A stretch of 64,000 nucleotides of DNA. Origin: Candidatus Parcubacteria bacterium. Lineage in GTDB: Bacteria > Patescibacteriota > Patescibacteriia > Buchananbacterales > SURF-54. Location: assembly GCA_003599635.1 (NCBI GenBank), contig QZIX01000002.1:18224-82223 (forward strand), written 5' to 3'. The notes under the pieces are model-generated. The model was not told the DNA's origin and made no database searches. It saw nothing but the letters and a program-made list of their open reading frames with translations. Shown piece after piece: positions 3,475 to 46,746 of the stretch (its first letter is position 1; each line of letters opens with the position of its first letter). The translations under genes were made by a program, and so were the position numbers.

Positions 3475-4926
3475 ATGGAAAAAGGAGATTTTCAGGAAAA
3501 GAAAATCAGGCAGAAAAAAGTCAATGACTTAAGGTTATTAGGGATTAACCCTTATCCGTCAACCGTTGCGGTCGGTATGTCCGTCGCAGAATCAAGAGAG
3601 CTTGGCGAAGGCGCTAAAAAAGTCAAAATTGCGGGAAGGATTGTGTCTTTCAGGCAGATGGGAAAACTTACTTTTGCCAATATTAAGGATGAGACGGCAA
3701 AAATACAAATCGCCTTTAAGGAAGACTCAATCGGCAAATCCAAATATGATTTTTTGAATTTTTTAAATGTCGGTGATTTTGTAAGCGTTACCGGAAATCT
3801 TTTTAAAACCAAAAAAGGCGAACTGACTGTTCAAGTGACGGATTTCAATCTGCTTACCAAGGCGCTTATGCCATTGCCTGAAAAATGGCACGGGCTAAAA
3901 GATCAGGAGCTGCGTTTTAGAAAAAGATATCTGGATTTACTGTCAAGCAATCAGGTGTTTGAACTGTTCAAACTGCGCAGCAAATTTATAAAGAACGTAA
4001 GAAATTTTTTTGAACAGAAAGATTTTTTAGAAGTGGAAACTCCGGTATTAGAAAATATACCCGGCGGTGCTGATGCTGAACCGTTTGTAACGCATCATAA
4101 TACGCTAGATTTCGATTTATATTTAAGAATTTCCCTGGAACTTCATCTGAAGCGTTTGCTCGTAGGGGGCTATGAGAGAATTTTCGAAATAGGAAAGGTA
4201 TTTCGTAACGAAGGCATGAGCACTCAGCACCTCCAGGAGTTTACTATGCTTGAATTTTACATAGCGTATAAGGATTACAATTTTTTAATGAAATTCGTGC
4301 CTGATTTGTACCGTTATGCCATTAAAAATACTTTCGGAAGTTTGAAAATTGACTACCAGGGAATCGAACTTGATTTCGACCAAGGATGGAAAACAATTGA
4401 CTACGTTAAGGCCATAAAGGAAAAAACCGGTGTGGATGTTGTTAAAGCCGCTGACAATGAAATCAAAGAAGCCATAAAAAAATTTAAAGTCAGAACTGAC
4501 ATTAAAGCCGGCCGGGGAAGGCTGATAGATCAGCTTTACAAAAAAATGGTGCGGCCGGAATTGGTTCAGCCTACTATTTTGATTAATCTGCCGGTTGCCG
4601 TATCGCCTTTAGCCAAGAGGCATTTTGACAAACCCGAACTGGCCGAAAGAATGGTAATTGTCGCCGCCGGAATTGAAATCGGCAACGGTTTTTCAGAACT
4701 CAACGACCCGCAGGACCAGAAAGAGCGTTTTTTGGAGCAGATGAAATTAAGGAAGGCGGGGGATAAGGAAGCGCAGATGACCGATAATGATTTTATTGAA
4801 GCTTTGGAATACGGCATGCCGCCGGCCGCCGGTTTTGGTGTTGGACTTGACCGGCTGTTTATGATTTTGGCCGGCGCGGATTCAATACGTGAGGTAGTGC
4901 TGTTTCCGACCATGAAAGATAAATAA
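3475..4926 (+). CDS. lysS: lysine--tRNA ligase (class II)
   Basis: OB-fold N-domain and class II motifs (FRNEG, GFGVGLDRL); full-length LysS-like sequence. Confidence 0.95.
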   Translation: MEKGDFQEKKIRQKKVNDLRLLGINPYPSTVAVGMSVAESRELGEGAKKVKIAGRIVSFRQMGKLTFANIKDETAKIQIAFKEDSIGKSKYDFLNFLNVGDFVSVTGNLFKTKKGELTVQVTDFNLLTKALMPLPEKWHGLKDQELRFRKRYLDLLSSNQVFELFKLRSKFIKNVRNFFEQKDFLEVETPVLENIPGGADAEPFVTHHNTLDFDLYLRISLELHLKRLLVGGYERIFEIGKVFRNEGMSTQHLQEFTMLEFYIAYKDYNFLMKFVPDLYRYAIKNTFGSLKIDYQGIELDFDQGWKTIDYVKAIKEKTGVDVVKAADNEIKEAIKKFKVRTDIKAGRGRLIDQLYKKMVRPELVQPTILINLPVAVSPLAKRHFDKPELAERMVIVAAGIEIGNGFSELNDPQDQKERFLEQMKLRKAGDKEAQMTDNDFIEALEYGMPPAAGFGVGLDRLFMILAGADSIREVVLFPTMKDK

Positions 4927-5479: not shown

Positions 5480-5874
5480 TCAAAAAAGTAATGGTTTTCG
5501 GAACATTCGATATTTTGCACCCGGGTCATCTGAGTTTTTTCAAACAGGCGCAAAAATACGGCCAACTGACGGTTGTAGTCGCCCGGGATAAAAATGTTTT
5601 GAAAATTAAGGGTAAATTACCGCAAAACTCCGAGAACGAAAGGCTTAAAACAGTTAAAAATATATGGGGAATCACCGCTTTACTTGGCGATTTAAATGAC
5701 CCTTATAAGGTTATAAAAAAAGCCGGGCCTGGTATTATCTGCCTTGGTTACGACCAAAAAAGTTTCGTGAACGAATTAAAATTTAAATTTCCAAAAATAA
5801 AAATTATCAGGTTAAAACCATATAAGCCAGAATTATTTAAAACATCTAAACTAATTCAATATGCTCGACATTAA
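5476..5874 (+). CDS. cytidylyltransferase-fold nucleotidyltransferase (RibL/FAD synthase-like or TagD-like)
   Basis: N-terminal GTFDILHPGH matches the (H/T)xGH nucleotidyltransferase motif; 132 aa. Confidence 0.6.
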   Translation: MIKKVMVFGTFDILHPGHLSFFKQAQKYGQLTVVVARDKNVLKIKGKLPQNSENERLKTVKNIWGITALLGDLNDPYKVIKKAGPGIICLGYDQKSFVNELKFKFPKIKIIRLKPYKPELFKTSKLIQYARH

Positions 5875-7099
5875 TAAAATCAGGGAAGAAAAGGAGACGG
5901 TAAAAAAAGCCCTGCTTAAAAGAATGGATGAAAAAGATCTTGATCTGGACAGTTTAATTGAGTTGGATGATGAGAGGCGTCGGTTATTGCATAAAGCAGA
6001 AAATTTGAAAGCTGAAAGGAATAAATACTCCAAAAGCAAGCCCGATAAAGAAACTATTGCCAAACTTAAAGCAGTCGGCATAGAAATAAAAGAACTTGAT
6101 GAAAAGTTGAGAATTATCGAAGAAAGGCTTAAAGAAAAATTAAGCGCCTTGCCGAATATTACCGCTGATGATGTTTTGCCTGGGGGCAAGGAAAATAATA
6201 AAGTAATCCGAACTCTTGGCAAGAAAAGAGAATATGATTTTAAAGCTAAAGATCATGTCGAATTGGCAACTGCTTTGGATATAATCGACTATGAACGCGG
6301 AGCCAGAATGTCAGGTTCCGGGTTTTGGATTTATAAAGGCCAGGGCGCCGTTTTAGAATGGTCTTTATTGAATTATTTTATAGAATTTCACAGAAAAAAC
6401 GGCTACGACTTCATACTGCCGCCTTATCTTTTGACTGAACAATCGGCTTATACATCCGGGCATCTGCCCAAATTCCGCGATGACCTTTTTTGGACACAGG
6501 ATAAGCTTTGTTTGAACGCTACCTCAGAAATGATGCTGGGAAATTTACATCGTGATGAAATTTTAAACAAACTGCCTATGAAATATTTCGCTTACTCGGC
6601 CTGTTTTAGGCGGGAAGCGGGCAGCTATCGTAAAGAGGAGAGGGGAATGGTGCGCGGACATCAATTTAACAAAATTGAAATGTTTCATTTTACTGAACCA
6701 AAAGACAGCTGGAAGTCTTTTGATGAACTTGTAAAGAATGCCGAAAGACTTGTTGAAGGACTGGATCTGCATTTTCAATCCGTACAACTTGCGGCAGGGG
6801 ATGCTTCGGCTGCCATGGCCAAAACCATAGACATTGAAGTCTGGATACCGAGCATGGAAACGTACAAGGAAGTATCCAGCGTTTCCAATGCCCTTGATTA
6901 TCAGGCGCGGCGCGGTAATGTCAGGTATAAAAATCCAAAGGGTAAAAACGATTTCGTCCATACATTAAACGCTTCCGGCCTGGCAACCAGCCGTTTATTT
7001 CCGGCAATACTTGAGCAGCATCAGAATTCTGACGGTACGGTCAATATTCCCAAAAGCCTGCAGAAATACACCGGCTTTAAAAAAATAGAAAAAAAATAA
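5861..7099 (+). CDS. serS: serine--tRNA ligase
   Basis: N-terminal coiled-coil arm plus class II core (FRREAGS, GHQFNKIEMF, NASGLATSR). Confidence 0.95.
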   Translation: MLDINKIREEKETVKKALLKRMDEKDLDLDSLIELDDERRRLLHKAENLKAERNKYSKSKPDKETIAKLKAVGIEIKELDEKLRIIEERLKEKLSALPNITADDVLPGGKENNKVIRTLGKKREYDFKAKDHVELATALDIIDYERGARMSGSGFWIYKGQGAVLEWSLLNYFIEFHRKNGYDFILPPYLLTEQSAYTSGHLPKFRDDLFWTQDKLCLNATSEMMLGNLHRDEILNKLPMKYFAYSACFRREAGSYRKEERGMVRGHQFNKIEMFHFTEPKDSWKSFDELVKNAERLVEGLDLHFQSVQLAAGDASAAMAKTIDIEVWIPSMETYKEVSSVSNALDYQARRGNVRYKNPKGKNDFVHTLNASGLATSRLFPAILEQHQNSDGTVNIPKSLQKYTGFKKIEKK

Positions 7100-17890: not shown

Positions 17891-19876
17891 TTAGTAACAG
17901 CCGACCCAGCGATCATTTCTTGCTTCTACTGCCGCCACGTCCCAGCCGTCGTTTAAGGTTTCCTGGTCATAAGTGGTAAGCCACAGGTTGGCATGGTATT
18001 CATTCGGCACAATCCAGCCGGAATTATACAGATCCGTCAGTTTTTTGCCGTACATATCGCCGCCGGTTGCGTAATATTTGTCCGTAATATCCACTCCGTC
18101 CCTTCTGAAATACCATCTTTCAGCCGTATTGCTTACTTTGTCAATATGTATTTCCCAGCAATACCATTTGTCGGCTAATGTGTCGACGCCGGCAGAAAAA
18201 ATATCGTCGACCAAAACGCCGTAGCCGGAAGGATGGTCGCTGCCAAAACCCAGCGACATAGTGTAATCCATCTGGTTTACCGATGTCAGCCCGAAGCTTT
18301 TGAATTCAGATGTCATCGGCGCATGAAAACGCAGATAATGTTTTGTATTTTTATTGGTGTCGATGCCTGAAAACCAGTGAGTATTGGAATGAAGATTTCC
18401 CGGCTGTACCCAGTCTTTACTGGCGCGGACATATGCCCTGATGTAAAGGTCGTCCGGGTCCCTGAAAATGTCGGGAATGTCAGATGAGCCGTTGATTTTA
18501 AGTTCCATTGTCCTGCCGTCGCCGTCAAGCCCCCCATTGCCTACGGTAACCATTTTTAAGTAATTGTTATTGCCGGGCGCTCCCGGCATAACTGCGGGAT
18601 ACTGCAATGAATTGTTGTAAAACACTTTCCAGGTCTGTTTGTCGGTGCAGTCATCGCCGTAATAGCTTTCCTCGTATTGCGACCCCAGGCCCTGGCAATA
18701 ACCGGTTTTGGTGTTCCAGCTGGAAAAGAAAAGGCAGCCGGGATCGCCTGAACAGTTCGTTTCCGGACTGCTGCACGTTTGCTGTTCCGAAGGTTTCGGA
18801 AGAACGGGACAGTAATAGGTTGAAGGGTCAGGGTCCAGGCAGGTTCTGGTCTGAATACCATTGATGCAGCTTCCCCAATCTGAACACTGCCATGATTCGG
18901 TGCAGGAAAAACAAGATGACGAACTAAGACAGTCTGAATCAGAGCAGTCTGTTTTTCCGTCGCAGTCGTTGTCATAGTTGTCCGAGCAGTTTTCAGCAAC
19001 ACAAGCCGGCTTACCGGGTTTTACAATCACAAAATACATGATATTGCCCACACAGCCGTCGCCGCAGGCGCCCAAAGAAACTTTTCCCGGCAGATAATTC
19101 TTAACGTAAATCAGGCTTTTCGATCCGGCGCTGGTAGTTAAGCTTAAACCCGTGGGGGTAAAATTTTGCGTCAGCCATAAAGGTTTTTTGCCCCAGCCCC
19201 AGGAATCTTCCCAGCCGATTACATAAACTGTTGCCGGTTCGGAAATTTCAAAACTTACGCTTAGCGATGAATTGGCTTTGTCATCCATTTTCGTCCTTAA
19301 AAGCGTTTGCCCTGAAAGTTCGGAAGAAAGCGATCTAATGGTGATAGTTCTGTCAATATACGGCTGAGATCCGGCATTGGCAATTCCGCTTTTGTATGTT
19401 GAGGGTGAAATATCCGTTAAAGTCAGGCCGGACGCCGAAAAAAAGCAGTCAGTGTCATTTTCATCGGTCCCGCCGTCGCAGTCGTTGTCAAAACCGTCCG
19501 CGCAGATTTCCGAACCCGCGCAGCAAAAATTGTCATTGCAGCCGAATTGGCAGTCGGTGCTGACCGAACGGGCATAGGTCAGACCGCCGACACCGGAGCA
19601 GTAATATTCTTTTAATGACACCGGATCCAGACAGGCGTCAGGATAACTGATGCGTCCGTTGATTAAAATTTCACCCGGTTTTTGAAAATTTATGCCACCG
19701 TCAGAATCCAGGCAGGTTTTTACTTTGGTTATGGTCGCTTTTTTGGTAGTTCTCAGCCGGGCATCAGCCGTAAAAGTAGTCACAACGCCGACAGCAATGC
19801 TTAAAGCAGCTAATGCTGCCAGAAAAGCGATCAGAGTGAATAAAACTGATTGTTTTTGTTTTATGAAGTTATCCAC
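17891..19876 (-). CDS. large Cys-rich secreted/surface protein
   Basis: N-terminal TM. Modules: CLDSDGG...LKEYYC; two DNDCDG metal-binding-type motifs (CADGFDNDCDGGTDENDTDC, CSDNYDNDCDGKTDCSDSDC); a lectin-like middle; and a C-terminal beta-rich domain. The annotated start is GTG. Confidence 0.6.
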   Translation of the reverse strand: MDNFIKQKQSVLFTLIAFLAALAALSIAVGVVTTFTADARLRTTKKATITKVKTCLDSDGGINFQKPGEILINGRISYPDACLDPVSLKEYYCSGVGGLTYARSVSTDCQFGCNDNFCCAGSEICADGFDNDCDGGTDENDTDCFFSASGLTLTDISPSTYKSGIANAGSQPYIDRTITIRSLSSELSGQTLLRTKMDDKANSSLSVSFEISEPATVYVIGWEDSWGWGKKPLWLTQNFTPTGLSLTTSAGSKSLIYVKNYLPGKVSLGACGDGCVGNIMYFVIVKPGKPACVAENCSDNYDNDCDGKTDCSDSDCLSSSSCFSCTESWQCSDWGSCINGIQTRTCLDPDPSTYYCPVLPKPSEQQTCSSPETNCSGDPGCLFFSSWNTKTGYCQGLGSQYEESYYGDDCTDKQTWKVFYNNSLQYPAVMPGAPGNNNYLKMVTVGNGGLDGDGRTMELKINGSSDIPDIFRDPDDLYIRAYVRASKDWVQPGNLHSNTHWFSGIDTNKNTKHYLRFHAPMTSEFKSFGLTSVNQMDYTMSLGFGSDHPSGYGVLVDDIFSAGVDTLADKWYCWEIHIDKVSNTAERWYFRRDGVDITDKYYATGGDMYGKKLTDLYNSGWIVPNEYHANLWLTTYDQETLNDGWDVAAVEARNDRWVGCY

Positions 19877-19877
19877 A
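19869..19877 (-). promoter_or_regulatory. perfect DnaA-box 9-mer overlapping the GTG start of the Cys-rich protein gene
   Basis: On the minus strand, TGTGGATAA contains the annotated GTG (19876..19874) and the TAA stop of a 29-codon upstream ORF. Confidence 0.4.
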
Positions 19878-20097
19878 GGTTTGTTTTTTAATTGTAAATT
19901 CCGTCAATAAAAAAAATCCTATTTGAATTAATAATATTTTAATGAAATTATAGGACATTTTCCCCTCCTATAATAAAATTGTAAGGATTTAGTGTTATTT
20001 TAGCATAAAAAGTAACATTGGACAACGAAATTTCCATTACTGTGTTGACAACAAAGGCAGTTTATTCAATTTTAATGAAGATTTGGTTAAGAAATAG

Positions 20098-20397
20098 TTA
20101 CTGCTTCCTTATATATTTTTTACAGTTTTTGCTTTTGCATAAGCATTTAAAGTTAAGGACTGTAGCGTCTTTTGAATAATCTGATGTTATCTCTTCACCT
20201 TTTTTTATTGATTTAATCGCTATGTCACTTTGTCCTCTCACTCTGGTATTAGACTCGCAGCAGTGGTTGACGTATCTTTCGGGAATTCCTTGCAAAATAT
20301 ATTGGCCTTTTTTATAGCTGGAAACATAATGTTTGAGCTTAGCAGATAGCTTTTGATATTCTCTTTTAGTTAAAATTTTTTTCGGTTTCCATTGCAA
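20098..20397 (-). CDS. SET-domain protein-lysine methyltransferase (5' part in another frame, see findings)
   Basis: Motifs YVNHCCESN (NHxCxPN-type), GEEITSDYS and post-SET CLCKSKNC (CxCx4C). In-frame codons upstream of the TTG read IKGKGVFTARNFKKGEVV, the SET N-terminus. Confidence 0.8.
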   Translation of the reverse strand: MQWKPKKILTKREYQKLSAKLKHYVSSYKKGQYILQGIPERYVNHCCESNTRVRGQSDIAIKSIKKGEEITSDYSKDATVLNFKCLCKSKNCKKYIRKQ

Positions 20398-20450
20398 TAC
20401 AACCTCGCCTTTTTTAAAATTTCTGGCGGTAAATACTCCTTTGCCTTTAA

Positions 20451-20464
20451 TTTTTTATTTTTTT
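20451..20464 (-). promoter_or_regulatory. A7-T-A6 homopolymer tract (coding strand) at the SET-gene frame break
   Basis: Plus strand reads T6-A-T7. The two reading frames of the SET gene meet here. Confidence 0.5.
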
Positions 20465-20523
20465 ACTATGACATTTGTCATTTGAAATTTTATCAGACAT
20501 TAAAAATTTGTAATTGAAAATTT

Positions 20524-21240
20524 TTAAACTATCCATTTCAGAGTTTCTTCGAACAATTTTTCTTCTGTTCCCTCTTCGCAAAAGTTATGGCTTGAGCCCC
20601 TTATTATTACATAATCGTTTTTTGGCTTTATCATTTTTAAATACGGCAGCCAGTGCTTATGGGTACCTGATTCTGCAAAGATAAACTTTATAGGCGTGTC
20701 AAGTTTTCTAATAATTTTTCCGGGCTCTCTTGCCTCTGCCCATTCATTTATCATTTTTTTATTGGCCAGGGTTTCTTTTCCCCAGCGAAGAATATATTTA
20801 TTTAAGGATTTGTTGTAAGTAATAAATTTATCTTTAGTATTGGTAAATCCTTTTGTCGGGTCCCATAAAACAATTTTTTTTATGCCCGAAAGATTAGATT
20901 TTAAAATTACCAGGGCGCCAAGGCTGTGGCCGATAAGAAAAATATTTTTGTATTTATCTTGGAATTTGTTTAAAACAAGCTTTAAGTCATTTACGTGTAT
21001 GGTTACGCACGTGTCGCTTAATTGCCGCCCATTTGGCTTTCGGCTGTAAAAATCAAAACGGAAAGTGTCGAACCCCTTTTTGGTAAAAAAAGGCACGGCA
21101 TTAAAATACTGGTGTTCCCTGGAGCTGCCTGTTAAGCCGTGCACAAATATCAGCAAAGTTCGCTTATGCTTCCCCTGCCAGTTACGCGTGCCGTAAATAA
21201 TGTGGTTGTCTTTGGTTTTAATTTTAATTTCTTGTTCCAT
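20524..21240 (-). CDS. alpha/beta-fold hydrolase
   Basis: Nucleophile elbow LIGHSLGA, HG oxyanion region (IFVHGLTGS) and a C-terminal His (SSHNF). Confidence 0.75.
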   Translation of the reverse strand: MEQEIKIKTKDNHIIYGTRNWQGKHKRTLLIFVHGLTGSSREHQYFNAVPFFTKKGFDTFRFDFYSRKPNGRQLSDTCVTIHVNDLKLVLNKFQDKYKNIFLIGHSLGALVILKSNLSGIKKIVLWDPTKGFTNTKDKFITYNKSLNKYILRWGKETLANKKMINEWAEAREPGKIIRKLDTPIKFIFAESGTHKHWLPYLKMIKPKNDYVIIRGSSHNFCEEGTEEKLFEETLKWIV

Positions 21241-21287
21241 TTGTTTAGTTGTAAGCGATAAGTTATAAGTGGCAAGTTTTTAAACAG

Positions 21288-21397
21288 TGTCATCTCGACC
21301 GATGTTACGATTATTTGGGGTGAGTGGAGAGATCTCGATATACTTTAGCTTTTTTAAAACGAGATTTCTTCCCGCGGACGCGGGACTCGAAATGACA
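21288..21397. repeat. MITE-like gene-less copy of the GIY-YIG element (two hairpin modules)
   Basis: Runs TGTCATCTCGACCG...GGAGAGATCTCG to CGAGATTTCT...CTCGAAATGACA. The left 50 nt match 25979-26028 at about 42/50 positions by eye. Confidence 0.7.
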
Positions 21398-21405
21398 ATT
21401 GTTTT

Positions 21406-21432
21406 TGTCATTCTGAGCGGCACCGAAGAATC
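21406..21432. repeat. single TGTCAT hairpin module
   Basis: Sequence TGTCATTCTGAGCGGCACCGAAGAATC with the internal inverted repeat ATTCT/AGAAT. Confidence 0.6.
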
Positions 21433-21509
21433 TAAATTATTGTTTATTTCTAAACATTCTTAGGAAGACAGGGGTTTCAAAACATCACGAAACCCCTATG
21501 AATTTGTAG

Positions 21510-21749
21510 TTAAGCGATTTGCCTTAACATTGCATGGGCTTCCCTTAACAGATTATCCCTTTGGTTTTTTATAATCTGTTTACTGTATTTCTTGGCAATG
21601 TTTCTTATTGCCGTGGCTTGCTCATGAACATTAAGGCCGTATCTTGCCAAGCAATTAATCAGCGATCTGTAAGCTGAATTGATTCTTGCTAACTCCTCAT
21701 CGGTTAGCTTTGGATTATTTATCCATTCAAGCATTGCCGCCGTAACCAT
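21510..21749 (-). CDS. hypothetical helical protein
   Basis: Track ORF 21510..21767. The internal ATG at 21749 is preceded by AAGGGGGGG (SD-like) and is the more likely start. Confidence 0.35.
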   Translation of the reverse strand: MVTAAMLEWINNPKLTDEELARINSAYRSLINCLARYGLNVHEQATAIRNIAKKYSKQIIKNQRDNLLREAHAMLRQIA

Positions 21750-21982
21750 GCAAATCCCCCCCTTCATAAGAGCAATTTTTTTGGCCTTCCTAAAAATATT
21801 TTAAATTTTTAATACATATCTTCATCATCATCTTTTTCCTTTGGCCCCTTTTCTTTTAGTTGTTTTTTGACATATTTAATAATTTCAGTTAAGTCATTTT
21901 CCAATTCCGGTGGAATTGTATCACACTGTGTATAACCCCTTATAAATTTTTTAAATACTTTCTGCTCTATATACCATTTAAA

Positions 21983-22162
21983 TTATTCTCTGCCTAAAAT
22001 TTCATTGAAAGCTTTTTTAATTTTAGTTATAGCTTCTTCCGGCAAAGGTTTTTTATGCCAAACTGAAAGCAGTAACAATTCATCCGGATTATAACCCCAG
22101 TCAGGATAATATTCTTCAGCTGGGCTTAAGGGAAAACTTAATTCTTGCTTTACATTTTCCAT
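21983..22162 (-). CDS. hypothetical 59-aa protein; its frame continues past a TAA for 57 more codons (21809..21982)
   Basis: Hand translation gives MENVKQELSFPLSPAEEYYPDWGYNPDELLLLSVWHKKPLPEEAITKIKKAFNEILGRE*. Below the track's size cut-off. Confidence 0.3.
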   Translation of the reverse strand: MENVKQELSFPLSPAEEYYPDWGYNPDELLLLSVWHKKPLPEEAITKIKKAFNEILGRE

Positions 22163-22174
22163 AAGTTTTTGTTA

Positions 22175-22250
22175 TGTCATCCTGAATTTATTTCAGGATC
22201 TAGATTCCCCGCCTTTGCAGCGATGTAGGCGAAACGGGTTCGGAATGACA
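22175..22250. repeat. two-module TGTCAT...ATGACA palindromic element
   Basis: Sequence TGTCATCCTGAATTTATTTCAGGATCTAGATTCC...GGGTTCGGAATGACA. Confidence 0.75.
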
Positions 22251-22325
22251 ATTGTTTGGGATTTATGATTTAGAAGTTGGACTTTTATTAGAAATTAGGA
22301 TTTGGAAATTTTTACTATTATCGTT

Positions 22326-22721
22326 TTATTCTTCTATATCTCTATCGCTACTCTTTCCTTTCCAATTCAGCCAGAACAAATACGCAATTAAAAACGGAAC
22401 GCCGGAAATTTGCAGGATCCAGGCCAGGTAATACCATTCAAAACCCGTTGATATCATATTCCATAAGACAAAACCAATGTAAAAAAGTCCGGCCAAAGCA
22501 AAGAAAACAGCGCCGACAATTTCTTTTTTCCAGGCAATAATTAATATAAGCAATAAAACAAATGTCGGAACATTGTGCATAAAAAGTCCGATAGCAACGT
22601 CTTTGGCGTTTGCCGCGCCTTCAAAGACATCCAGCGAAAACATCGCCAGAAACAAGATGAAGATAATGGAGAGGATTCTGGGAGTCCAGTAGATGAGTTT
22701 GTTTGTTGTTTGCTGTTCCAT
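22326..22721 (-). CDS. hypothetical 4-TM membrane protein; its 5' head is repeated twice upstream
   Basis: 131 aa with four hydrophobic segments. The N-terminus MEQQTTNKLIYWTPRILSIIF is shared with the stubs at 23463..23525 and 24074..24115. Confidence 0.5.
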   Translation of the reverse strand: MEQQTTNKLIYWTPRILSIIFILFLAMFSLDVFEGAANAKDVAIGLFMHNVPTFVLLLILIIAWKKEIVGAVFFALAGLFYIGFVLWNMISTGFEWYYLAWILQISGVPFLIAYLFWLNWKGKSSDRDIEE

Positions 22722-22742
22722 GTAATTTATACTTAAAAAATT

Positions 22743-23447
22743 TTATTTAGTTATATTTAATGTAGCTAAAGCCTGCTGGTACTGTTCATCCAATTCCTTG
22801 CTATGATATATGCAGATATAATCACTTGGGCGTTTGTCTTCACTAATCACAACTTTTTTATATTCAATGCAATAATGACTACCTTTAAGGTCACCATCTG
22901 GCCGTGGTGAACTTGTAACGACTTTGAGCAAATTTAAGCCGTTACTGTTTTTTTCTCTTTCCGTGTAGGATAAGGTAGTGTGATCGAGACCATAGCCGTT
23001 TTTATACATATTTTGAAAATATTTCTCAAGGCTCTCCGGCTCAATAATTTTTCCTTTTTCATCTCGCATATTGTAATATTCATAAATGATTTGTATGTGA
23101 AAGCGGTGAAGCGGATTATCATTTACGGCTACCCTGGCAACGACAAAGTAATTGGGCTGTTGTTCTAATTGAATTTCATCATAATCGCTTTTGATTGTAA
23201 ATTCCAGCCCTAAAGCTTTGCTAAAAATTTTAACGAATTCTCCTTGCTTTTCCTTTTGCCATGACAGATAGTTTTCTTGAGGTTTATTTATCGATCCACC
23301 ATTTTTTATTTCCTTATCTTTTTTAACGTTAACGTTAATTTGTTGGTTTAACCTTGCTTGCTGTTTTTTCTGGTATAAAGCGAAGCCACTGATTGCTATA
23401 ATTGTTGCAATTAGTATTATTAGCACTGGTACAACGATTTTTTTCAT
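22743..23447 (-). CDS. hypothetical secreted/anchored protein
   Basis: 234 aa with an N-terminal MKKIVVPVLIILIATIIAISGFAL signal/anchor. No motif recognised. Confidence 0.5.
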   Translation of the reverse strand: MKKIVVPVLIILIATIIAISGFALYQKKQQARLNQQINVNVKKDKEIKNGGSINKPQENYLSWQKEKQGEFVKIFSKALGLEFTIKSDYDEIQLEQQPNYFVVARVAVNDNPLHRFHIQIIYEYYNMRDEKGKIIEPESLEKYFQNMYKNGYGLDHTTLSYTEREKNSNGLNLLKVVTSSPRPDGDLKGSHYCIEYKKVVISEDKRPSDYICIYHSKELDEQYQQALATLNITK

Positions 23448-23462
23448 AGATTTATAGTTATA

Positions 23463-23525
23463 TTAAATAAATAAGATTGAAAGAATTCTGGGAGTCCAGT
23501 AGATAAATTTGTTGTTTTTTTGCAT
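23463..23525 (-). repeat. 20-codon stub duplicating the 5' head of gene 22326..22721
   Basis: MQKNNKFIYWTPRILSILFI* versus MEQQTTNKLIYWTPRILSIIFI... of the full gene, with a 20-nt identical core ATCTACTGGACTCCCAGAAT. Confidence 0.8.
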
Positions 23526-23545
23526 ATGATAAATTAAATTTTAAA

Positions 23546-24040
23546 CTATCTGATTATTTTTGCGTCTTTGGGCAATTCTTTCTGTATTATTCCCAAATCA
23601 GTTTCGGAATAATCATTTCCGGAAATATCAAGGGTTCTTAAATTTTTTAGATTTCCCAACTCATATGGCAGTCCGGTAAGCTTATTATTAGATAAATCTA
23701 ATACCTGCAGGTTTTGCAATTGTCCGATTTCTGCCGGGACTCCTGTCATCTGGTTATTGCTCATATCAAGGATTTTTAAGTTTTGAAGATGCCTGATTTC
23801 CGCCTGTACGGCGCCGGTTAACTGATTGTTTGAAACATCCAGTTCTTCCAGGCTTGTTCGGTTAAAGACATACTCCGGAATTTTTTGCAGGTTTTGATTG
23901 CTTAAGTCTAATTTTTTTGTTTTCGGTGTATCACTCTGGTTTTTGTTTTCATTTTCTATAGAGACTTGTTTTTGAGGCGGCAGTAATGAACAACCGTTTA
24001 GCAATAATGCGATAATCATTGTGAATAGTATTTTTTTCAT
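23546..24040 (-). CDS. leucine-rich-repeat lipoprotein
   Basis: Lipobox LLLNGC, then about 5 LRR units (LxxLxLSNNxLTGxPxEIGxLxNL). Confidence 0.8.
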   Translation of the reverse strand: MKKILFTMIIALLLNGCSLLPPQKQVSIENENKNQSDTPKTKKLDLSNQNLQKIPEYVFNRTSLEELDVSNNQLTGAVQAEIRHLQNLKILDMSNNQMTGVPAEIGQLQNLQVLDLSNNKLTGLPYELGNLKNLRTLDISGNDYSETDLGIIQKELPKDAKIIR

Positions 24041-24073
24041 ATATTTTAAGTTATATAATTAAAATTGATAATG

Positions 24074-24115
24074 TTAAGTCATCCAGTAGATGAGTTTGTT
24101 TTTGGTTTGATTCAT
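24074..24115 (-). repeat. 13-codon stub duplicating the 5' head of gene 22326..22721
   Basis: MNQTKNKLIYWMT*, with a 19-nt identical core AACAAACTCATCTACTGGA. Confidence 0.8.
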
Positions 24116-24191
24116 AAATTTTTACGATGGCTGTTAGCTAAAATTATTTTATTGGATTGTGCAAATTTGATAAACCGTATCAGGCTTCATT

Positions 24192-24950
24192 TCAATTCTT
24201 ATCTAGGTTGCTTGATTTTAGGTAATCTAATAAGGCTGGACTTATTGATATAGTTTGATTTCCTTCTTTAATAACAAGAGTCATATCTGCAATTGCTTTG
24301 TATAACTTGAATGCTGCTAAGATTGTTTTATTAGCATCACCTTTCTGTTGGCGAGTATCATATTCCCATGAATGCAAGTATTTATTTCTAATGTTCCTTA
24401 TTACTTCAAATTGTTCATAAATTTTTCCCCCAATTGTTTTGATTGCAAGCAAAATATTTTCTCTTCTTATTTGTCTTATATCCTCAAAACTTTGTCCAAA
24501 CAATTTTTTTTCATCTTCTTCTGTAATTTTTTGTCCTCTTATATTGAAATTGCTCATTTTCCAAATAAGAAGAGTTAGCATTTCGCTAATTATTCCTGAT
24601 AATGCTATACAAGATAGGTATTCCCCTAGACAGTACTGCCTTTTTGCAGAAATCAATGGGTCAATGATTCGTTCAATAATATTTTGATAACTAGGAGTTA
24701 TTGTTACATGCGTTTCTTGGGTTGTTATTTCAGTATATCTTTTTAAAATATCTTGATTTATGGTAGTTATGGGTCTTTCGAAAAAATATTCAAGTTGGGT
24801 TACGGTATGTTTTATAGCTTGGTTTGTTGACGGAGACAACAAGTCATCAATTTTACAATTTTCGATAAAAGGGCCAAAGGAGCTATTAATTCTTAATAAT
24901 ACCCTATCCTTTTCTTCATTCTCTTTTTTTTGATCTATGTTTTTAGTCAT
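24192..24950 (-). CDS. HEPN-like protein (Rx4H motif), putative RNase/toxin component
   Basis: 252 aa, all-helical in character. FEVIRNIRNKYLHSW contains R188-N-K-Y-L-H193, the RNxxxH form of the HEPN motif. No search was run. Confidence 0.4.
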   Translation of the reverse strand: MTKNIDQKKENEEKDRVLLRINSSFGPFIENCKIDDLLSPSTNQAIKHTVTQLEYFFERPITTINQDILKRYTEITTQETHVTITPSYQNIIERIIDPLISAKRQYCLGEYLSCIALSGIISEMLTLLIWKMSNFNIRGQKITEEDEKKLFGQSFEDIRQIRRENILLAIKTIGGKIYEQFEVIRNIRNKYLHSWEYDTRQQKGDANKTILAAFKLYKAIADMTLVIKEGNQTISISPALLDYLKSSNLDKN

Positions 24951-24966
24951 ATAGAATAATTTAAAT

Positions 24967-25440
24967 TTATTTTTTTGTATTTTTTATAATAAAACTATTG
25001 TTATATTCTTGATGACTATTTACCCCCTTGCCGGTAACCATAAATAGAATCTGGCCATTGTCTGAGTAAGTGGGTAAGCTTGCCATTTTTTTCTTTTCAC
25101 CTGCATCTATAAAACTGCAATTGTGACTAGATGAACGAATTGGATCCTCTTCGTAATTATAGAATTCAGTTATGGGTCGTTGCTGCTTTTTTTTGTCTTG
25201 TAACCATTCGATCGTTATGTTTAAATCTTGAATCGGGTCATTTCCAAGATTGGCCAGTTCGGCAGATAACCCAAGTTTTTGACCTAGAGAAGATATATAT
25301 AATTTGGGTGAGAAAGATTTTTTTGGAGGATTGATGAAAAAGTAGCGTCTTATAAAGAATCCAAATATTGTAATCAAGATGCCTAAGAAAAAAATAATAA
25401 AGCTACTAATGACTGGATATTGTTCAATAAGTTGAACCAT
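24967..25440 (-). CDS. hypothetical single-pass membrane protein, upstream partner of the HEPN-like gene
   Basis: 157 aa with an N-terminal TM (VISSFIIFFLGILITIFGFFI) followed by a soluble domain. Only a 16-nt gap to the next gene. Confidence 0.5.
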   Translation of the reverse strand: MVQLIEQYPVISSFIIFFLGILITIFGFFIRRYFFINPPKKSFSPKLYISSLGQKLGLSAELANLGNDPIQDLNITIEWLQDKKKQQRPITEFYNYEEDPIRSSSHNCSFIDAGEKKKMASLPTYSDNGQILFMVTGKGVNSHQEYNNSFIIKNTKK

Positions 25441-25480
25441 ATTTTATTTAAAATTAAATGTTTCCTTTATTTAGTTTTTT

Positions 25481-25547
25481 GAGATTCCGAAACAAGCTTG
25501 CCCCGTATCTCCACCATATGCGGATGGTGCTGGGGTTCGGAATGACA
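25481..25547. repeat. right-hand hairpin module (GAGATTCCG...CGGAATGACA)
   Basis: Shares AGATTCC...GGGTTCGGAATGACA with 22205-22250. Confidence 0.6.
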
Positions 25548-25561
25548 ACGTTGTTTAGTTA

Positions 25562-25888
25562 TTATATATCAAATTCTTTTGCTATTAAATTCATCTTATC
25601 TGAAATTTCATCAAAAATTGGATCATCTTCGGCTACTGCCGCGCCTGGCTTTATTTTTAAAAAAATTCCTTTTAATTCATTGAGCCAGTTTTTTATTTGT
25701 TTATCTTTAACTAAAGCTAAAAAATTGTCTAATGCTTGTCCAGCTGACTTTAATCCAGCTTCACTCCAAATTCCTTGCAGCCGGGACATTGCAACCAAAC
25801 TCTCGCTCAAGTGGTGAAAAAATTCATTGCGAGCTTTTTCCAATGGCGGCATTTCGTATTGTTTTTGAGAATTTTCCTGATTTTTCAT
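25562..25888 (-). CDS. hypothetical protein
   Basis: 108 aa of balanced composition. The antisense track ORF 25458..25817 runs through a repeat and looks spurious. Confidence 0.45.
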   Translation of the reverse strand: MKNQENSQKQYEMPPLEKARNEFFHHLSESLVAMSRLQGIWSEAGLKSAGQALDNFLALVKDKQIKNWLNELKGIFLKIKPGAAVAEDDPIFDEISDKMNLIAKEFDI

Positions 25889-25915
25889 ATAACAATAAGT
25901 TGATTGAAGGGTTTT

Positions 25916-25970
25916 TGTTATCCTGAATTTATTTCAGGATCTAGATTCTTCGCTTTCGCTCAGAATGACA
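25916..25970. repeat. two-module TGTTAT...ATGACA element
   Basis: Sequence TGTTATCCTGAATTTATTTCAGGATCTAGATTCTTCGCTTTCGCTCAGAATGACA. The first 33 nt are near-identical to 22175-22207. Confidence 0.75.
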
Positions 25971-25978
25971 TGTTTATT

Positions 25979-26381
25979 TGTCATCTCGACCGGTGCCACG
26001 ATTTTTTAAGGTGAGTGGAGATATCTCATAACATCAAATCTTGCGATAAATCATTCAATTTGGGATTAACCTTCCTTATTAAATCCACCTTCTTTTTCCT
26101 TGACCATTTTTTGAGCTGTTTTTCTCTGGTAATGGCATCAGATACGTTATCATAAGGTTCGTAATAAACTAATTTGTTTATATTGTATTTTTTTGTAAAA
26201 CCTTCCACTACCTTATTTTTATGCTGGCTTATTCTTTCATCAAGTTTGCTTGTTACGCCAATATAGCTTGTGGTGTTCCACTTATTCATCATAATATAAA
26301 CGTAATAGGTTTTTCCCATAGAGTAAGGTATGAGATTTCTCGACTAGCTAAAAAACACTTTACGCATCGCTCGAAATGACA
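25979..26381 (-). mobile_element. terminal-inverted-repeat-bounded element carrying the GIY-YIG gene
   Basis: The left end TGTCATCTCGA (25979-25989) and right end TCGAAATGACA (26371-26381) are inverted repeats with 1 mismatch. The GIY-YIG ORF fills the interior, and its TGA stop lies inside the left module. The ends are homologous to the gene-less copy at 21288..21397. Confidence 0.6.
26026..26319 (-). CDS. GIY-YIG nuclease family protein (small stand-alone type)
   Basis: YYVYIMMNKWNTTSYIGVTSKLDERISQHKN is the GIY-(x)-YIG...R...H core; 97 aa. Confidence 0.85.
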   Translation of the reverse strand: MGKTYYVYIMMNKWNTTSYIGVTSKLDERISQHKNKVVEGFTKKYNINKLVYYEPYDNVSDAITREKQLKKWSRKKKVDLIRKVNPKLNDLSQDLML

Positions 26382-27899
26382 TTAATATTCCATCGCTTTT
26401 TTAAGCCTATTCAAAACCTTTTCCTTGCCCAAAACCGCGGCGACTTCAAACGGCCCGGGGGATTTTTGGCGGCCGGTTAAGGCAACGCGCATCGGCCACA
26501 GATTGGTGCCGGTATCCAATTGGTTGGCTTTTATAAATTCCATCACCTTTTTTTCTAACATATCGGCCGTAAAATCCTTTTCATCAATTTCTTTTAGCAG
26601 GTTGTAAATCAGATCCAAGGCTTGTTTGGTTTTTTCCATATCAGCCTTTTTCCAGACCAGCATTTCTTTTTCGTATTCCGGTTCTTGGAAGAAAAATTTT
26701 GTGGCTTCGGGCAGCTCTGTTAAAGTCTTGACCCTTTCTTTTTCTGTGGCAATAATCATTTTAAATTTATCAAAAGAAATTATTTCGCCTGACTTTTTCA
26801 CAACCAAGTCTTCTTCTATATTTTGACCCATATATCCTGTGAGCTCAGGCTTAACTTCCGCGCTTCTAAAAATCGGTTTTAAAATACCTTCTTTAATGTA
26901 AAAATAGACAGCAAAATTTGCCAACTCTTCTAAAGATTTTCTACGTATATACTGGCCGTTTATCCAGTCAAGTTTTTCCACGTTAAACACCGCGCCTGAC
27001 TTATTGATTTTTTCAAGCGAAAACTCCTTAACCATTTCATCAAGAGAAAATATTTCCCTTTCATCGCCGGGGTTCCATCCTAAAAACAAAACGAAATTAA
27101 GCAGGGCTTCGGGCAGATAGCCTTTTTCCAGATAATCTTTAACAGCAACGTCCCCCACTCTTTTGGATAGCTTTGACCGGTCGGGATTAAGCAGTAAAGG
27201 CACATGCGCGAATTGAGGCGCCTGCAAATTTAAAAATTTATATAAGATGATGTGCTTGGGAGTCGATGAAAGCCATTCCTCGCCGCGCATAACGTGGGTT
27301 ACGCCAATTTCCGCATCGTCAACGACAGACGCCAGATGGTAAGTCGGAAAGCCGTCGGATTTGATTAAAATCTGATCATCAAGCAGGTCTGTTGCAAATT
27401 TCACATGTCCCCGGATCAAGTCGTCAAATTCAATGGTTTCATTCTCCGGCATCTTCAATCGTATAACATACGGAACTTCGTTTTTTAATTGTTCGGCTAC
27501 TTGTTGCTCTGTTAAATCCCTGCATTTTTTATCGTACATTGTGGGTTTTTTTAAATTCCTTTGTTTTTGATGCAGCTCTTCTAATCGTTCTGGTGTGCAA
27601 AAACAATAATAAGCCAGGCCGGAGTCAATCAATTTTTGCGCGGCTTTTTTATAAACATTAAGCCGCTGCGACTGAAAGACAGGTTCATTATCAAATTTCA
27701 GTTTAAAAAAATTCAAAGTGTCGATTATGTCTTCAATTGCGCCTTCGACATATCTTTTTCTGTCGGTGTCTTCGATGCGCAGCAAAAATTTGCCCTTGTT
27801 TTTTTTGGCCAGCAAATAATTATATAAAGCCGTGCGCAAACCGCCGATGTGCAAAAAACCCGTGGGGCTGGGAGGAAAACGTGTAATTATTTTTGTCAT
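26382..27899 (-). CDS. gltX: glutamate--tRNA ligase
   Basis: Motifs RFPPSPTGFLHIGGLRTA (HIGH) and KLSKR (KMSKS). The track start at 27914 is an ATG donated by the TGTCAT repeat end. The start at 27899 (MTKIITRF) matches the usual GltX N-terminus. Confidence 0.95.
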   Translation of the reverse strand: MTKIITRFPPSPTGFLHIGGLRTALYNYLLAKKNKGKFLLRIEDTDRKRYVEGAIEDIIDTLNFFKLKFDNEPVFQSQRLNVYKKAAQKLIDSGLAYYCFCTPERLEELHQKQRNLKKPTMYDKKCRDLTEQQVAEQLKNEVPYVIRLKMPENETIEFDDLIRGHVKFATDLLDDQILIKSDGFPTYHLASVVDDAEIGVTHVMRGEEWLSSTPKHIILYKFLNLQAPQFAHVPLLLNPDRSKLSKRVGDVAVKDYLEKGYLPEALLNFVLFLGWNPGDEREIFSLDEMVKEFSLEKINKSGAVFNVEKLDWINGQYIRRKSLEELANFAVYFYIKEGILKPIFRSAEVKPELTGYMGQNIEEDLVVKKSGEIISFDKFKMIIATEKERVKTLTELPEATKFFFQEPEYEKEMLVWKKADMEKTKQALDLIYNLLKEIDEKDFTADMLEKKVMEFIKANQLDTGTNLWPMRVALTGRQKSPGPFEVAAVLGKEKVLNRLKKAMEY

Positions 27900-27908
27900 A
27901 AGTGTTTC

Positions 27909-27964
27909 TGTCATCCTGAACTTGATTCAGGATCTAGAGATTCCGGATCAAGTCCGGAATGACA
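27909..27964. repeat. two-module TGTCAT...ATGACA element
   Basis: Sequence TGTCATCCTGAACTTGATTCAGGATCTAGAGATTCCGGATCAAGTCCGGAATGACA. It supplies the false gltX ATG. Confidence 0.75.
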
Positions 27965-45813: not shown

Positions 45814-46731
45814 TTACGGTTGTAAAATATCTTCCGTTCTGCCATTTATTGATATTATCACGTTTTCTACGGTGGCAAATTGCTTAAGTGTTGTTGTAAT
45901 TTGCGATCTAATGGCAGCAACCCGGCACGAACCTCCGACGGCAGCTTCCAGCCTGTCATCAAAATCAGCATAGGCTGTTTTGTCTTTTATAATCAGGCTC
46001 TGAAGTTTAACACCGCTGTTAATACTGGTGTAGAATTTTTCATTTATTTCTTCCGGTGTGGGGCCCTTTAACAGTTCTTCTATGGCGGCTTTGCCGACAG
46101 CTTCGGTTTTGGCGATTCTTCTTTGAATCGGATAAACCAATCTACAATCCATAACTTCGGGGTTGAGTTTTTCCGATCCAAAATAAACATTTACTGTCAT
46201 ATCTTCAACGGCTATAAATTTTACCGGAATAATTACCTTGTCTGTTTCAGTGCCGTCTTTGGCCGAATACTGAAAAACTTCAACTATTCCCGTTTCGCTG
46301 GCCGGTTTATTGTAATTCACCTGGATGTTAAAAGAACCGAAATAACCTGCATCCGGACTCTCAGACATAGCTGTAGTTTCAGCTAATTTGTTACCTTTAT
46401 TATCACTTACTCTTACTATAAACGTGTTTTCGAAAACCCGCGCGTCACCTTTTACAATCAGAGGTAATCCGATTTCCTGATTGTCCTTCGGCTCAGAAAC
46501 AAATATATTTTGTTTTACGGCCTGACATGTCTTTATAGTCGTTGTTTGATCATCAGGGCACGGCGTTTGACGGCATTTTTCACCTTGCTGGCAATCAAGT
46601 TCCTGGTCGCAGGTACTTGTGCAGTTCTTAGCAGTAACATTTTGGTTGGTACCGGTGTTTTCCCTGCCATTTTTTAAACTACAGCCGGCTATAAGCAGCA
46701 GGATTGCCGCCAGGATAAGAATTTTTTTCAT
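45814..46731 (-). CDS. lipoprotein with Ig-like (Gmad2-type) and GerMN-like domains
   Basis: Lipobox LLIAGC and a Cys-rich linker. The C-terminal YFGSEK...AAIEELLKGPTPEE...ADF region is GerMN-like. Confidence 0.65.
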   Translation of the reverse strand: MKKILILAAILLLIAGCSLKNGRENTGTNQNVTAKNCTSTCDQELDCQQGEKCRQTPCPDDQTTTIKTCQAVKQNIFVSEPKDNQEIGLPLIVKGDARVFENTFIVRVSDNKGNKLAETTAMSESPDAGYFGSFNIQVNYNKPASETGIVEVFQYSAKDGTETDKVIIPVKFIAVEDMTVNVYFGSEKLNPEVMDCRLVYPIQRRIAKTEAVGKAAIEELLKGPTPEEINEKFYTSINSGVKLQSLIIKDKTAYADFDDRLEAAVGGSCRVAAIRSQITTTLKQFATVENVIISINGRTEDILQP

Positions 46732-46746
46732 ATGTTTATATAGTTA

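Follow-up and report, generated by a model that had tools for sequence, protein, structure and literature searches.

Gene arrangement at the locus

The window, that is, the whole 64,000-nt stretch of DNA analysed here, carries on its minus strand an intact gene for a membrane protein of the DUF7670 family. Upstream of it lie two truncated copies of its 5′ end (its head), designated stub 1 and stub 2, each followed by a different gene. The features are listed below in the 5′ to 3′ direction of the minus strand.

24192..24950, minus strand: 252-aa orphan gene with no family match, the upstream flank
24115..24074, minus strand: stub 1, a 13-codon ORF (MNQTKNKLIYWMT and a stop), of which only 24115..24083 (ATG to TGG) is derived from DUF7670
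24082-24091, minus strand: the 10-nt ATCTACTGGA as it lies in stub 1; it is common to all three heads
24041..24082, minus strand: native upstream block of the LRR gene, promoter-like, beginning ATGACTTAACATTATCAATTTTAATTA, the left part of insert 1
23546..24040, minus strand: complete gene for a 164-aa LRR lipoprotein, the cargo of insert 1
23526..23545, minus strand: native 3′ flank of the LRR gene, beginning TTTAAAATTTAATTTAT and reaching the ATG of stub 2
23463..23525, minus strand: stub 2, a 20-codon ORF (MQKNNKFIYWTPRILSILFI and a stop), a 5′ fragment of a different, formerly functional DUF7670 gene
23485-23504 (stub 2) and 22675..22694 (intact head), minus strand: exact 20-nt core ATCTACTGGACTCCCAGAAT
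23448..23462, minus strand: 15-nt junction from the stop of stub 2 to the 234-aa gene, with a TATAAC/TATAAA box-like sequence
22743..23447, minus strand: gene for a 234-aa protein with an N-terminal hydrophobic anchor or signal, the cargo of insert 2
22326..22721, minus strand: intact gene for a 131-aa DUF7670 membrane protein (Pfam PF24709, E 1.3e-26)

The three heads stand in direct order, with two inserts between them and the intact gene downstream, and both the order and the coordinates agree with those given in an earlier note on this DNA. The tail of stub 1 (MT and the stop codon) is already upstream DNA of the LRR gene. A spacer of 76 nt separates the 252-aa gene from stub 1, and the whole locus is within a low-GC stretch of orphan genes. 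The designation of the 252-aa gene as a HEPN-side flank was not borne out, with no match in Pfam, NCBIfam or PADLOC and only an Rx4H motif read by eye. The orphan neighbours had no PHROG or PADLOC match either; a single weak PADLOC match, to HEC-01A, was seen in a 108-aa neighbour.

The similarity among the heads, which the earlier note had thought might vanish on formal alignment, was upheld by a repeat finder, by a count of the core pattern against shuffled sequences and, for stub 2, by the family HMM. The repeat finder returned a three-copy repeat family of 28 nt, in which the stubs are 82% and 93% identical to the intact head, and also paired stub 2 with the intact head over 57 nt (79% identity). 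The identical cores of 19–20 nt claimed earlier are present, the longest exact runs being 19 nt between stub 1 and the intact head and 20 nt between stub 2 and the intact head. A 16-nt core pattern gave 3 exact matches in the window, and 5 matches at up to two mismatches compared with 0.21 in shuffles; near-matches of the core at 30398 and 33170 lie inside unrelated proteins and were dismissed as chance.

The repeat is limited to the coding head. The 130 nt upstream of the three heads are unrelated (P 0.4-0.7), and a common promoter in front of them was rejected, there being no similarity in that region. A promoter and terminator scan showed no excess over shuffles, and an Rfam search gave no relevant match. 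Homology with the intact gene extends through codon 11 in stub 1 but through codon 20 in stub 2, so that its end-points differ. Both stubs retain an ATG and an open frame that is in frame with the following gene (expected by chance about 1 time in 9), and the distance from the stub end to the next ATG is 15-41 nt.

Origin of the two stubs

The intact gene matches PF24709 over residues 4-123, and four hydrophobic helices can be read by eye from the alignment of its 131-aa product; the analysis also corrects the annotated start of this gene. Among 1209 DUF7670 homologues the head is the best conserved part, and its conservation spans CPR bacteria and DPANN archaea, which makes the head a plausible portable homology anchor. 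The closest other DUF7670 protein found in one genome scan and one metagenome scan is only 66% identical. Exact look-ups of the proteins of the window in searchable collections, the contig index included, gave no match, and the literature search found no paper that mentions DUF7670.

Both stubs are true 5′ fragments of DUF7670 genes. Stub 2 was recognized by the family HMM with 29 bits (E 3e-6) over profile positions 2-21, while stub 1 is below the length that the HMM can use and its similarity covers 9 residues only. When stub 2 was compared with the resident head, 9 of 12 differences fell at third codon positions (P about 0.001) and only 3 residues were changed (P about 3e-4). Stub 2 diverged under constraint at the protein level, and the predominance of third-position differences shows a separately evolving DUF7670 gene to be its source. 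It is as close to foreign heads (up to 81% identity) as to the resident head (77%), and the gene from which it came may have been either a xenologue or an old paralogue. The 20-mer shared by stub 2 and the resident head is carried by none of 125 foreign heads, and an exact run of at least 20 nt occurs in 2.4% of family head pairs with similar identity (empirical P about 0.02). Such an exact core, despite the divergence of stub 2, is what would be expected if an exchange had occurred within the core.

Stub 1 has another history. It is identical to the intact head at 26 of 28 nt, the family-variable N-terminus included, and is a recent copy of the resident head.

The two genes read as inserts

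The LRR gene (Pfam LRR_8, E 7e-20) encodes a protein whose N- and C-termini align end to end with those of 12 homologues at 63-74% identity. Its upstream block matches the upstream DNA of LRR homologues in other Patescibacteria, most clearly at locus L164 (score 35, P<1/3000) and also at L162 (P=0.004) and L165 (P=0.016), and the block in its 3′ flank is also found behind the stop codons of L162 and L164 (P=0.0003 and P=0.008, respectively). On this evidence at least one of the two cargo genes, the LRR gene, is complete and self-contained, keeps its native flanks and has heads on both sides. Since the gene is complete and has its own conserved flanks, one joint can be placed directly behind the TAC TGG of stub 1 and the other at the stub 2 ATG. 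The possibility that terminal inverted repeats enclose the LRR gene was also considered. An 18-nt perfect pair exists in L164 alone, and as it is missing from six other distinct LRR loci and from the window, the idea was dropped.

The 234-aa protein had itself as its sole match among 5.8 billion proteins, and its gene had no match in Pfam, NCBIfam, PHROG or PADLOC. One remote homologue (31% identity) was found, a lipoprotein in an unrelated context.

Occurrence of the arrangement at other loci

The arrangement of stubs and inserts is a one-off. When 160 other DUF7670 loci (1.37 Mb) were scanned in six frames with the HMM and by motif, 0/160 had a head stub; a short-motif scan of the same loci gave 8 matches, none of which looked like a stub, compared with 3 in the control. 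Homologues of the LRR, 234-aa or 252-aa proteins were not found at the DUF7670 loci, and a DUF7670 head was present at none of 7 distinct LRR-homologue loci (four scanned by HMM and three by eye). The DUF7670 gene, the LRR gene and the core were all absent from IMG/VR viral contigs. Among the DUF7670 loci, L062 has a C-terminal DUF7670 fragment adjoining a duplicated HigA gene, and L027, the only one of the 160 with a second full copy, has two full DUF7670 copies in opposite orientation.

Junctions and signs of a recombination system

The junctions that follow the two stubs had been described as similar to each other. The likeness is literally there (36 nt at 81% identity), but it does not rise above chance: a local alignment of the two post-core junctions scored 23 (P = 0.065 against shuffles), 1.6% of the gene-upstream pairs in the window scored equally high or higher, and unrelated upstream regions reached 27-28 against either junction. 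A look-alike third junction lies at 46721-46751. In this genome TATAAT-like boxes directly precede many ATGs, Shine-Dalgarno motifs are rare, and 4 of 64 genes start with ATGAAAAAAAT. The likeness is generic because of these boxes and this shared start, and junction homology as an insertion footprint was rejected in favour of a generic pre-ATG pattern of the genome.

We then looked for recombination machinery in 34 ORFs between 10 and 35 kb of the window (all ORFs of at least 110 aa, minus three overlapping longer ORFs, plus six shorter ones). None encodes an integrase or transposase domain, and no recombinase lies within about 12 kb of the locus, which confirms the earlier remark that no integrase is adjacent. 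Each insert consists of one gene, and neither gene is a recombinase. An attC-like fold was absent from both strands of the three heads. Folding energies were -3 to -7 kcal/mol; the fold z-scores were about 0 in stub 2 as in the intact head, while a 5-bp hairpin brought that of stub 1 to about -2. No inverted repeats bracket the cassettes. As at gene-end islands, direct repeats of the target gene flank the inserts and the target gene is intact.

Possible origin of the arrangement

In the reading that we prefer, and to which we would give an even chance of being correct, the stubs are scars left when two genes were gained, each joined by recombination over short homology in the conserved head. 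The LRR lipoprotein gene and the 234-aa orphan gene would both have arrived, as complete, self-contained units, at the 5′ end of DUF7670, joined via the first 30-60 nt of its coding sequence, the most conserved stretch of a widespread family. In the crossover mechanism and order of events that we infer, a DNA molecule bearing a head would have recombined with the chromosomal head by a single crossover (Campbell-type, short-homology or template-switch) carried out by host functions, and neither a dedicated recombinase nor a recombination site would have been involved. After each crossover the insert would have a head cut short on its upstream side and an entire gene on its downstream side, and two crossovers would produce the order stub, insert, stub, insert, gene. 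At least one partner head, that of stub 2, would have come from another DUF7670 gene. The stubs are presumably non-functional, and each insert probably has its expression driven by promoter-like boxes of its own.

Some observations fit this reading poorly. The 10-20 exact nucleotides are very little homology for a RecA-type crossover, and the retention in both stubs of an ATG and an in-frame open frame could hint at function. The 5′ part of stub 1 is nearer to the current head than stub 2 is, so a strict two-insertion model needs a mosaic donor head or a later conversion.

The earlier note had favoured repeated insertion of cassettes at the 5′ end. Its layout of two inserts and three heads, the genuine DUF7670 fragments and the self-contained LRR unit all stand, while the integron-like, repeatedly site-specific part of the proposal found no support. 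A recombinase encoded in trans that inserts single-gene cassettes at the head core and regenerates the head, as in integrons or gene-end islands, would account for the 10-nt ATCTACTGGA in all three heads with longer exact cores in pairs, for the n+1 heads that go with n inserts, and for an identical core amid synonymously diverged sequence, a pattern known from integrative elements that replace the end of a gene. We nevertheless consider it unlikely. The ORFs tested between 10 and 35 kb yielded no integrase or transposase domain, the homology of the two stubs stops at different points, the heads lack inverted repeats and a stable fold, and the LRR unit retains its promoter-like block; the likeness of the junctions is generic, the arrangement was seen at 0/160 DUF7670 loci and 0/7 distinct LRR loci, and the viral contigs gave no trace of its parts. 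A broader idea, in which the conserved DUF7670 head is a portable landing pad where secreted-protein genes are stacked by a recombinase in trans or by short homology, is just as improbable in our judgment; its footprint would be an exact core with synonymously saturated flanks and clean joints.

Erosion is a further explanation that is possible, though doubtful. Two or three full DUF7670 genes, paralogues or acquired copies, would once have been interleaved with the LRR and 234-aa genes, and two of the gene bodies would have been deleted. Stub 2 was evidently once part of a functional, separately evolving DUF7670 gene, a DUF7670 fragment and a second copy are known at other loci (L062 and L027), and deletions are common in bacteria with small genomes. 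But two independent deletions would be needed, each running from inside a head to the exact edge of the native upstream block of the next gene, and no remnant of a DUF7670 body or tail is found between the heads. The second full copy is at just 1 of 160 loci and in opposite orientation, and DUF7670 and LRR genes never adjoin at the other loci examined. Stub 2 moreover begins exactly at its ATG and is preceded by the 3′ flank of the LRR gene, so that under erosion its own upstream DNA must have been removed as well. A functional role of the stubs, as upstream ORFs or leader peptides that control translation or transcription of the secreted-protein genes, would explain why both keep an ATG and an open frame, in frame and 15-41 nt from the next ATG, and the rarity of Shine-Dalgarno motifs makes unusual initiation plausible. 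We regard this role as quite improbable: the peptides are unequal in length with only NK[LF]IYW in common, a TATAAT-like box lies between the stub and the ATG of each downstream gene, the synonymous pattern of stub 2 is accounted for by its past in a real gene, and seven distinct LRR loci have a similar native upstream block without such an ORF or head. The contig is metagenome-assembled, which would allow for an assembly artefact, and the similarity might be due to chance; both are very improbable, since the exact repeats are at most 20 nt, presumably less than the k-mer of a typical assembler, no two of the three copies are the same, the flanking genes are all intact and in frame, and the similarity is far above chance in the core-pattern count against shuffles and in the family HMM.

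If the stubs are only scars, their value is local, as a record of two recent gains of surface or secreted-protein genes in a Parcubacteria genome, with at least one DNA partner that bore a foreign or old DUF7670 head. Use of the head as a reused insertion site finds little support here; if real, such use would mean that genes can be captured by a new route with little machinery, in organisms about whose mobile elements little is known, and a true landing pad would amount to an integrase-less, integron-like swapping of surface proteins in ultra-small symbionts.

Comparison with known systems

The closest layout is that of the dusA islands and prophages, which integrate in the 5′ end of dusA by means of DusA-specific tyrosine integrases and replace that 5′ end (PMC4482086). 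Each carries its own integrase beside the regenerated gene end, the site is used in over 200 bacteria, and the islands far exceed one gene in size, with one described island in a 48.3-kb deleted region (PMC4482086). As in these islands, the inserts described here sit within the 5′ end of a protein-coding gene, which stays intact because that end is duplicated; the displaced 5′ remnant lies beyond the insert, which is bordered by short, imperfect direct repeats. Unlike them, the present locus has no integrase, its inserts are single genes of 0.6-0.8 kb, its homology ends at two different points, and the arrangement is present at 0/160 further loci of the target family.

Mobile integrons (IntI, attI, attC) share with the locus single-gene inserts in the same orientation, arranged head to tail with a short repeat at their bounds. 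The locus differs in lacking IntI and any imperfect palindrome or fold of the attC type, in having target-gene coding sequence as its repeat, and in the promoter-like flank that belongs to at least one insert.

In staphylococci, composite SCC and pseudo-SCC arrays occupy the 3′ end of rlmH (orfX); at icd, phage 21 and e14 replace the gene end, leaving an identical core with synonymously diverged flanks. These elements use Ccr or phage integrases, have a defined core, target a 3′ end and are known from many strains. The locus resembles them in its tandem inserts split by direct repeats of the target gene end, in units without a recombinase, which also occur among them, and in a replaced end that differs mostly synonymously. 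It differs from them in that an integrase, a defined core, a 3′ target and recurrence among strains are not seen here.

With ordinary scars of illegitimate or short-homology recombination the locus has in common truncated gene pieces at the joints, a single occurrence, low-GC and orphan-rich surroundings and no machinery. It departs from them in that the same head was left twice, in register, with one of the scars derived from a foreign or old copy, and in its very clean joints, which fall at an ATG and behind a Trp codon and are neater than random scars usually are.

Repeated heads at the DUF7670 locus

In the source MAG (Candidatus Parcubacteria; locus tags C4569_00320 to 00330), the 5' coding start, or head, of a DUF7670 membrane-protein gene occurs three times, once in the intact gene and twice as a stub in front of another gene, with the features arranged as follows.

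24950..24192, minus strand: 252-aa orphan gene, then a 76-nt spacer to stub 1
24115..24074, minus strand: stub 1, MNQTKNKLIYWMT*
24040..23546, minus strand: 164-aa LRR lipoprotein gene, with 20 nt between its end and stub 2
23525..23463, minus strand: stub 2, MQKNNKFIYWTPRILSILFI*, then 15 nt
23447..22743, minus strand: 234-aa gene with an N-terminal hydrophobic segment, then 21 nt
22721..22326, minus strand: intact 131-aa DUF7670 gene

That the heads are repeated, as the earlier note had it, proved correct and non-random by a repeat finder, by counts of the core pattern against shuffles and by a family HMM. The repeat finder returned a three-copy 28-nt family, in which the stub copies are 82% and 93% identical to the intact head, together with a 57-nt pair at 79% between stub 2 and the intact head. 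The 16-nt core pattern had three exact matches in the window and five with at most two mismatches (0.21 in shuffles), and stub 2 scored 29 bits with the HMM. The two inexact matches among these five, both inside unrelated proteins, were rejected as chance. No DUF7670 sequence was found in the window besides the two stubs and the intact gene, and only coding sequence is repeated: over the 130 nt before their ATGs, the three heads were no more alike than shuffles (P 0.4-0.7). Each stub ATG shares its reading frame with the start codon of the gene that follows (24115/24040, 75 nt apart; 23525/23447, 78 nt apart), with two intervening TAA codons for stub 1 and one for stub 2; both being in frame has a chance of about 1 in 9.

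Within 19800-26300 the GC content is 28-38%, compared with about 40-50% in the flanks, and nearly all genes are small and without family matches. Among them is the 252-aa protein, previously taken to mark a HEPN side, which has the Rx4H motif (RNKYLH) and no HEPN profile match. The orphan neighbours had no PHROG match, and PADLOC gave one weak match, HEC-01A, to a 108-aa protein. Two families of hairpin-containing intergenic repeats (e.g. ATCCTGAATTTATTTCAGGAT...) occur at 22172-22218, 25913-25959 and 27906-27952, and also at 21288-21336 and 25979-26027; one of the copies directly follows DUF7670, and a composite one borders a GIY-YIG gene of 97 aa (26026-26319). Rfam matched neither family, and both resemble small mobile or REP-like elements. 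A high-GC patch (45-52%) holds the gene of a 661-aa secreted protein (17891-19876, minus strand), which differs in composition from the surrounding genes; the protein has repeated Cys-rich CDGxTDxxDxDC motifs and a weak MopE-like metal-binding match.

DUF7670 family and its loci in other genomes

The 131-aa protein clearly belongs to Pfam DUF7670 (E 1.3e-26), a family mentioned in no paper in the literature; the alignment, read by eye, suggests a small membrane protein containing four hydrophobic helices. The annotated public protein (C4569_00320, 105 aa) begins at Met27 and leaves out the conserved 26-residue head. No other part of the family is as well conserved as this head (KFIYWTPRILSIIFILFLAMFSLDVF, in CPR bacteria and DPANN archaea alike), so the gene almost certainly begins at the ATG at 22721. 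Homologues are about 50-60% identical to the window protein, in CPR hosts (Parcubacteria, Gracilibacteria, Saccharibacteria and others) and DPANN hosts (Woesearchaeota, Nanoarchaeota, Pacearchaeota), and the lack of a split by domain at this identity suggests that the gene was transferred repeatedly between bacteria and archaea.

We compared 160 DUF7670 loci, together 1.37 Mb (80 came from genomes representing species, 80 from metagenome contigs). Scanned in six frames with the HMM, they yielded 161 full genes and not one head-only fragment, the only additions being a C-terminal fragment and, in L027, a second full copy. The fragment, in the Gracilibacteria locus L062, adjoins a second, near-identical copy of a HigA antitoxin gene, and the intact DUF7670 gene there is also preceded by HigA (3486-3551 and 3615-3959 versus 5659-6357), so that DUF7670 neighbourhoods are rearrangement-prone elsewhere too. 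A short-motif scan for remnants like stub 1 gave eight matches, none stub-like, against three in the reversed control. In a Woesebacteria locus, L058 (5579-6185 and 9885-11150), a GIY-YIG gene comes directly after DUF7670, and gltX is 4 kb away from the latter; the window holds the same three genes (GIY-YIG, 26026-26319; gltX, 26382-27914), a hint of old, loosely kept synteny. Recurrent neighbours in L135, L031 and L069 are LexA, radical-SAM and LigB genes.

Homologues of the LRR, 234-aa and 252-aa proteins were absent from the 160 loci, and the DUF7670 head was absent, by HMM or by eye, from seven distinct LRR-homologue loci of other genomes, whose neighbours vary. The 234-aa gene is nearly an orphan, matching only itself among 5.8 billion proteins; an exhaustive search gave a single 31%-identical relative, a lipoprotein in an unrelated context. 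IMG/VR viral contigs contained no DUF7670, LRR-family or core sequence. Pfam bore out the observation that no integrase is adjacent, finding no integrase or transposase domain in 34 ORFs from the 10-35 kb interval (every ORF of 110 aa or more, apart from three overlapping longer ORFs, plus six shorter). With no attC-like folding in the heads either, and no recurrence at the 160 loci, the integron-like cassette insertion proposed earlier was unsupported.

Origins of the stubs and limits of the LRR insert

Of 51 aligned nt, stub 2 and the resident head disagree at 12, nine of them third codon positions (P about 0.001), with only three residue changes, all family-typical (P about 3e-4 under random substitution). 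Over 48 aligned nt it is up to 81% identical to heads of unrelated genomes and 77% to the resident head. Stub 2 is therefore no decayed copy of the resident head but a fragment of another DUF7670 gene, which was once functional and evolved separately. Stub 2 and the resident head nevertheless have an exact 20-nt run in common, carried by none of 125 foreign heads (longest run with any of these: stub 2, 12 nt; intact head, 13 nt). Among 3407 family head pairs with a similar overall identity, 2.4% have a run of at least 20 nt; the run hints at exchange between the two inside the core but does not settle it. Stub 1 is a recent relative of the resident head, because their match (26 of 28 nt) falls in the family-variable N-terminal part (QT[KT]NKL).

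The reported similarity of the two stub-to-gene junctions did not hold on alignment (local score 23, P = 0.065 against shuffles): 1.6% of gene-upstream pairs in the window equal or beat it, unrelated upstream regions score 27-28 against either junction, and a third look-alike lies at 46721-46751. Among 64 crude gene starts of the whole window, four begin with ATGAAAAAAAT, 29 have a TATAAT-like hexamer starting at -20 to -9, these hexamers being concentrated 6-16 nt ahead of the start codon, and only six have Shine-Dalgarno-like motifs. The TATAAC...ATG pattern of the junctions is thus a generic gene-start feature, and the hexamer positions with the rarity of Shine-Dalgarno-like motifs suggest that many transcripts are leaderless or have very short leaders.

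The junction between stub 1 and the LRR gene is the latter's own upstream block, matching upstream regions of other Patescibacteria LRR homologues (L164, score 35, P<1/3000; L162, P=0.004; L165, P=0.016). The 20 nt past its stop codon match their 3' flanks (L162, P=0.0003; L164, P=0.008), and the protein is full length at both ends. Given a complete gene with native flanks, the LRR insert spans 24082..23526, its left joint directly after TAC TGG of stub 1 and its right joint at the stub 2 ATG; the 'MT*' tail of stub 1 is thus LRR upstream DNA. In L164 an 18-nt perfect inverted repeat (TAATAAAATCAATTTTAA; 64-81 and 640-657) brackets the homologous gene; L162, L165 and the window have a single-sided copy, and the pair was not found at six other distinct LRR loci. 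This palindrome could be regulatory or a relic of mobile ends.

Origin of the arrangement

Two inserts with three heads, joints this clean and an LRR unit complete in itself are consistent with gene gain at the DUF7670 5' end and duplication of the head. A single crossover between head-bearing DNA and the chromosomal head would leave an insert flanked by duplicated heads. We give about an even chance to one-off scars of two such gains, through host recombination at the conserved head. Hard for this reading are the short exact homology (10-20 nt), the 5' part of stub 1 lying nearer the current head than stub 2 does, and both stubs being in frame with the following gene.

The leading rival, erosion of tandem DUF7670 copies, accounts for the coding-type divergence of stub 2. 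For it to hold, two deletions must each have stopped precisely at the native flank of the gene that follows, and few loci have tandem copies (1 of 160, that copy inverted); we consider it unlikely. A dedicated system acting in trans ranks next and is improbable, an upstream-ORF role of the stubs slightly more so, and an assembly artefact or chance similarity is very improbable.

Read as the probable record of two gene gains, the locus is a neat case of gene-fragment scars, set in a variable part of the genome that is low in GC and rich in orphans. Integrase-driven islands are known to replace the 5' end of dusA, leaving a 5' remnant behind (PMC4482086). One-off scars are favoured because what defines such islands, and integrons too, namely an element-borne recombinase, a defined att or attC site and recurrence of the arrangement, is absent here, while the geometry, 5' remnant included, is that of the dusA islands (PMC4482086).
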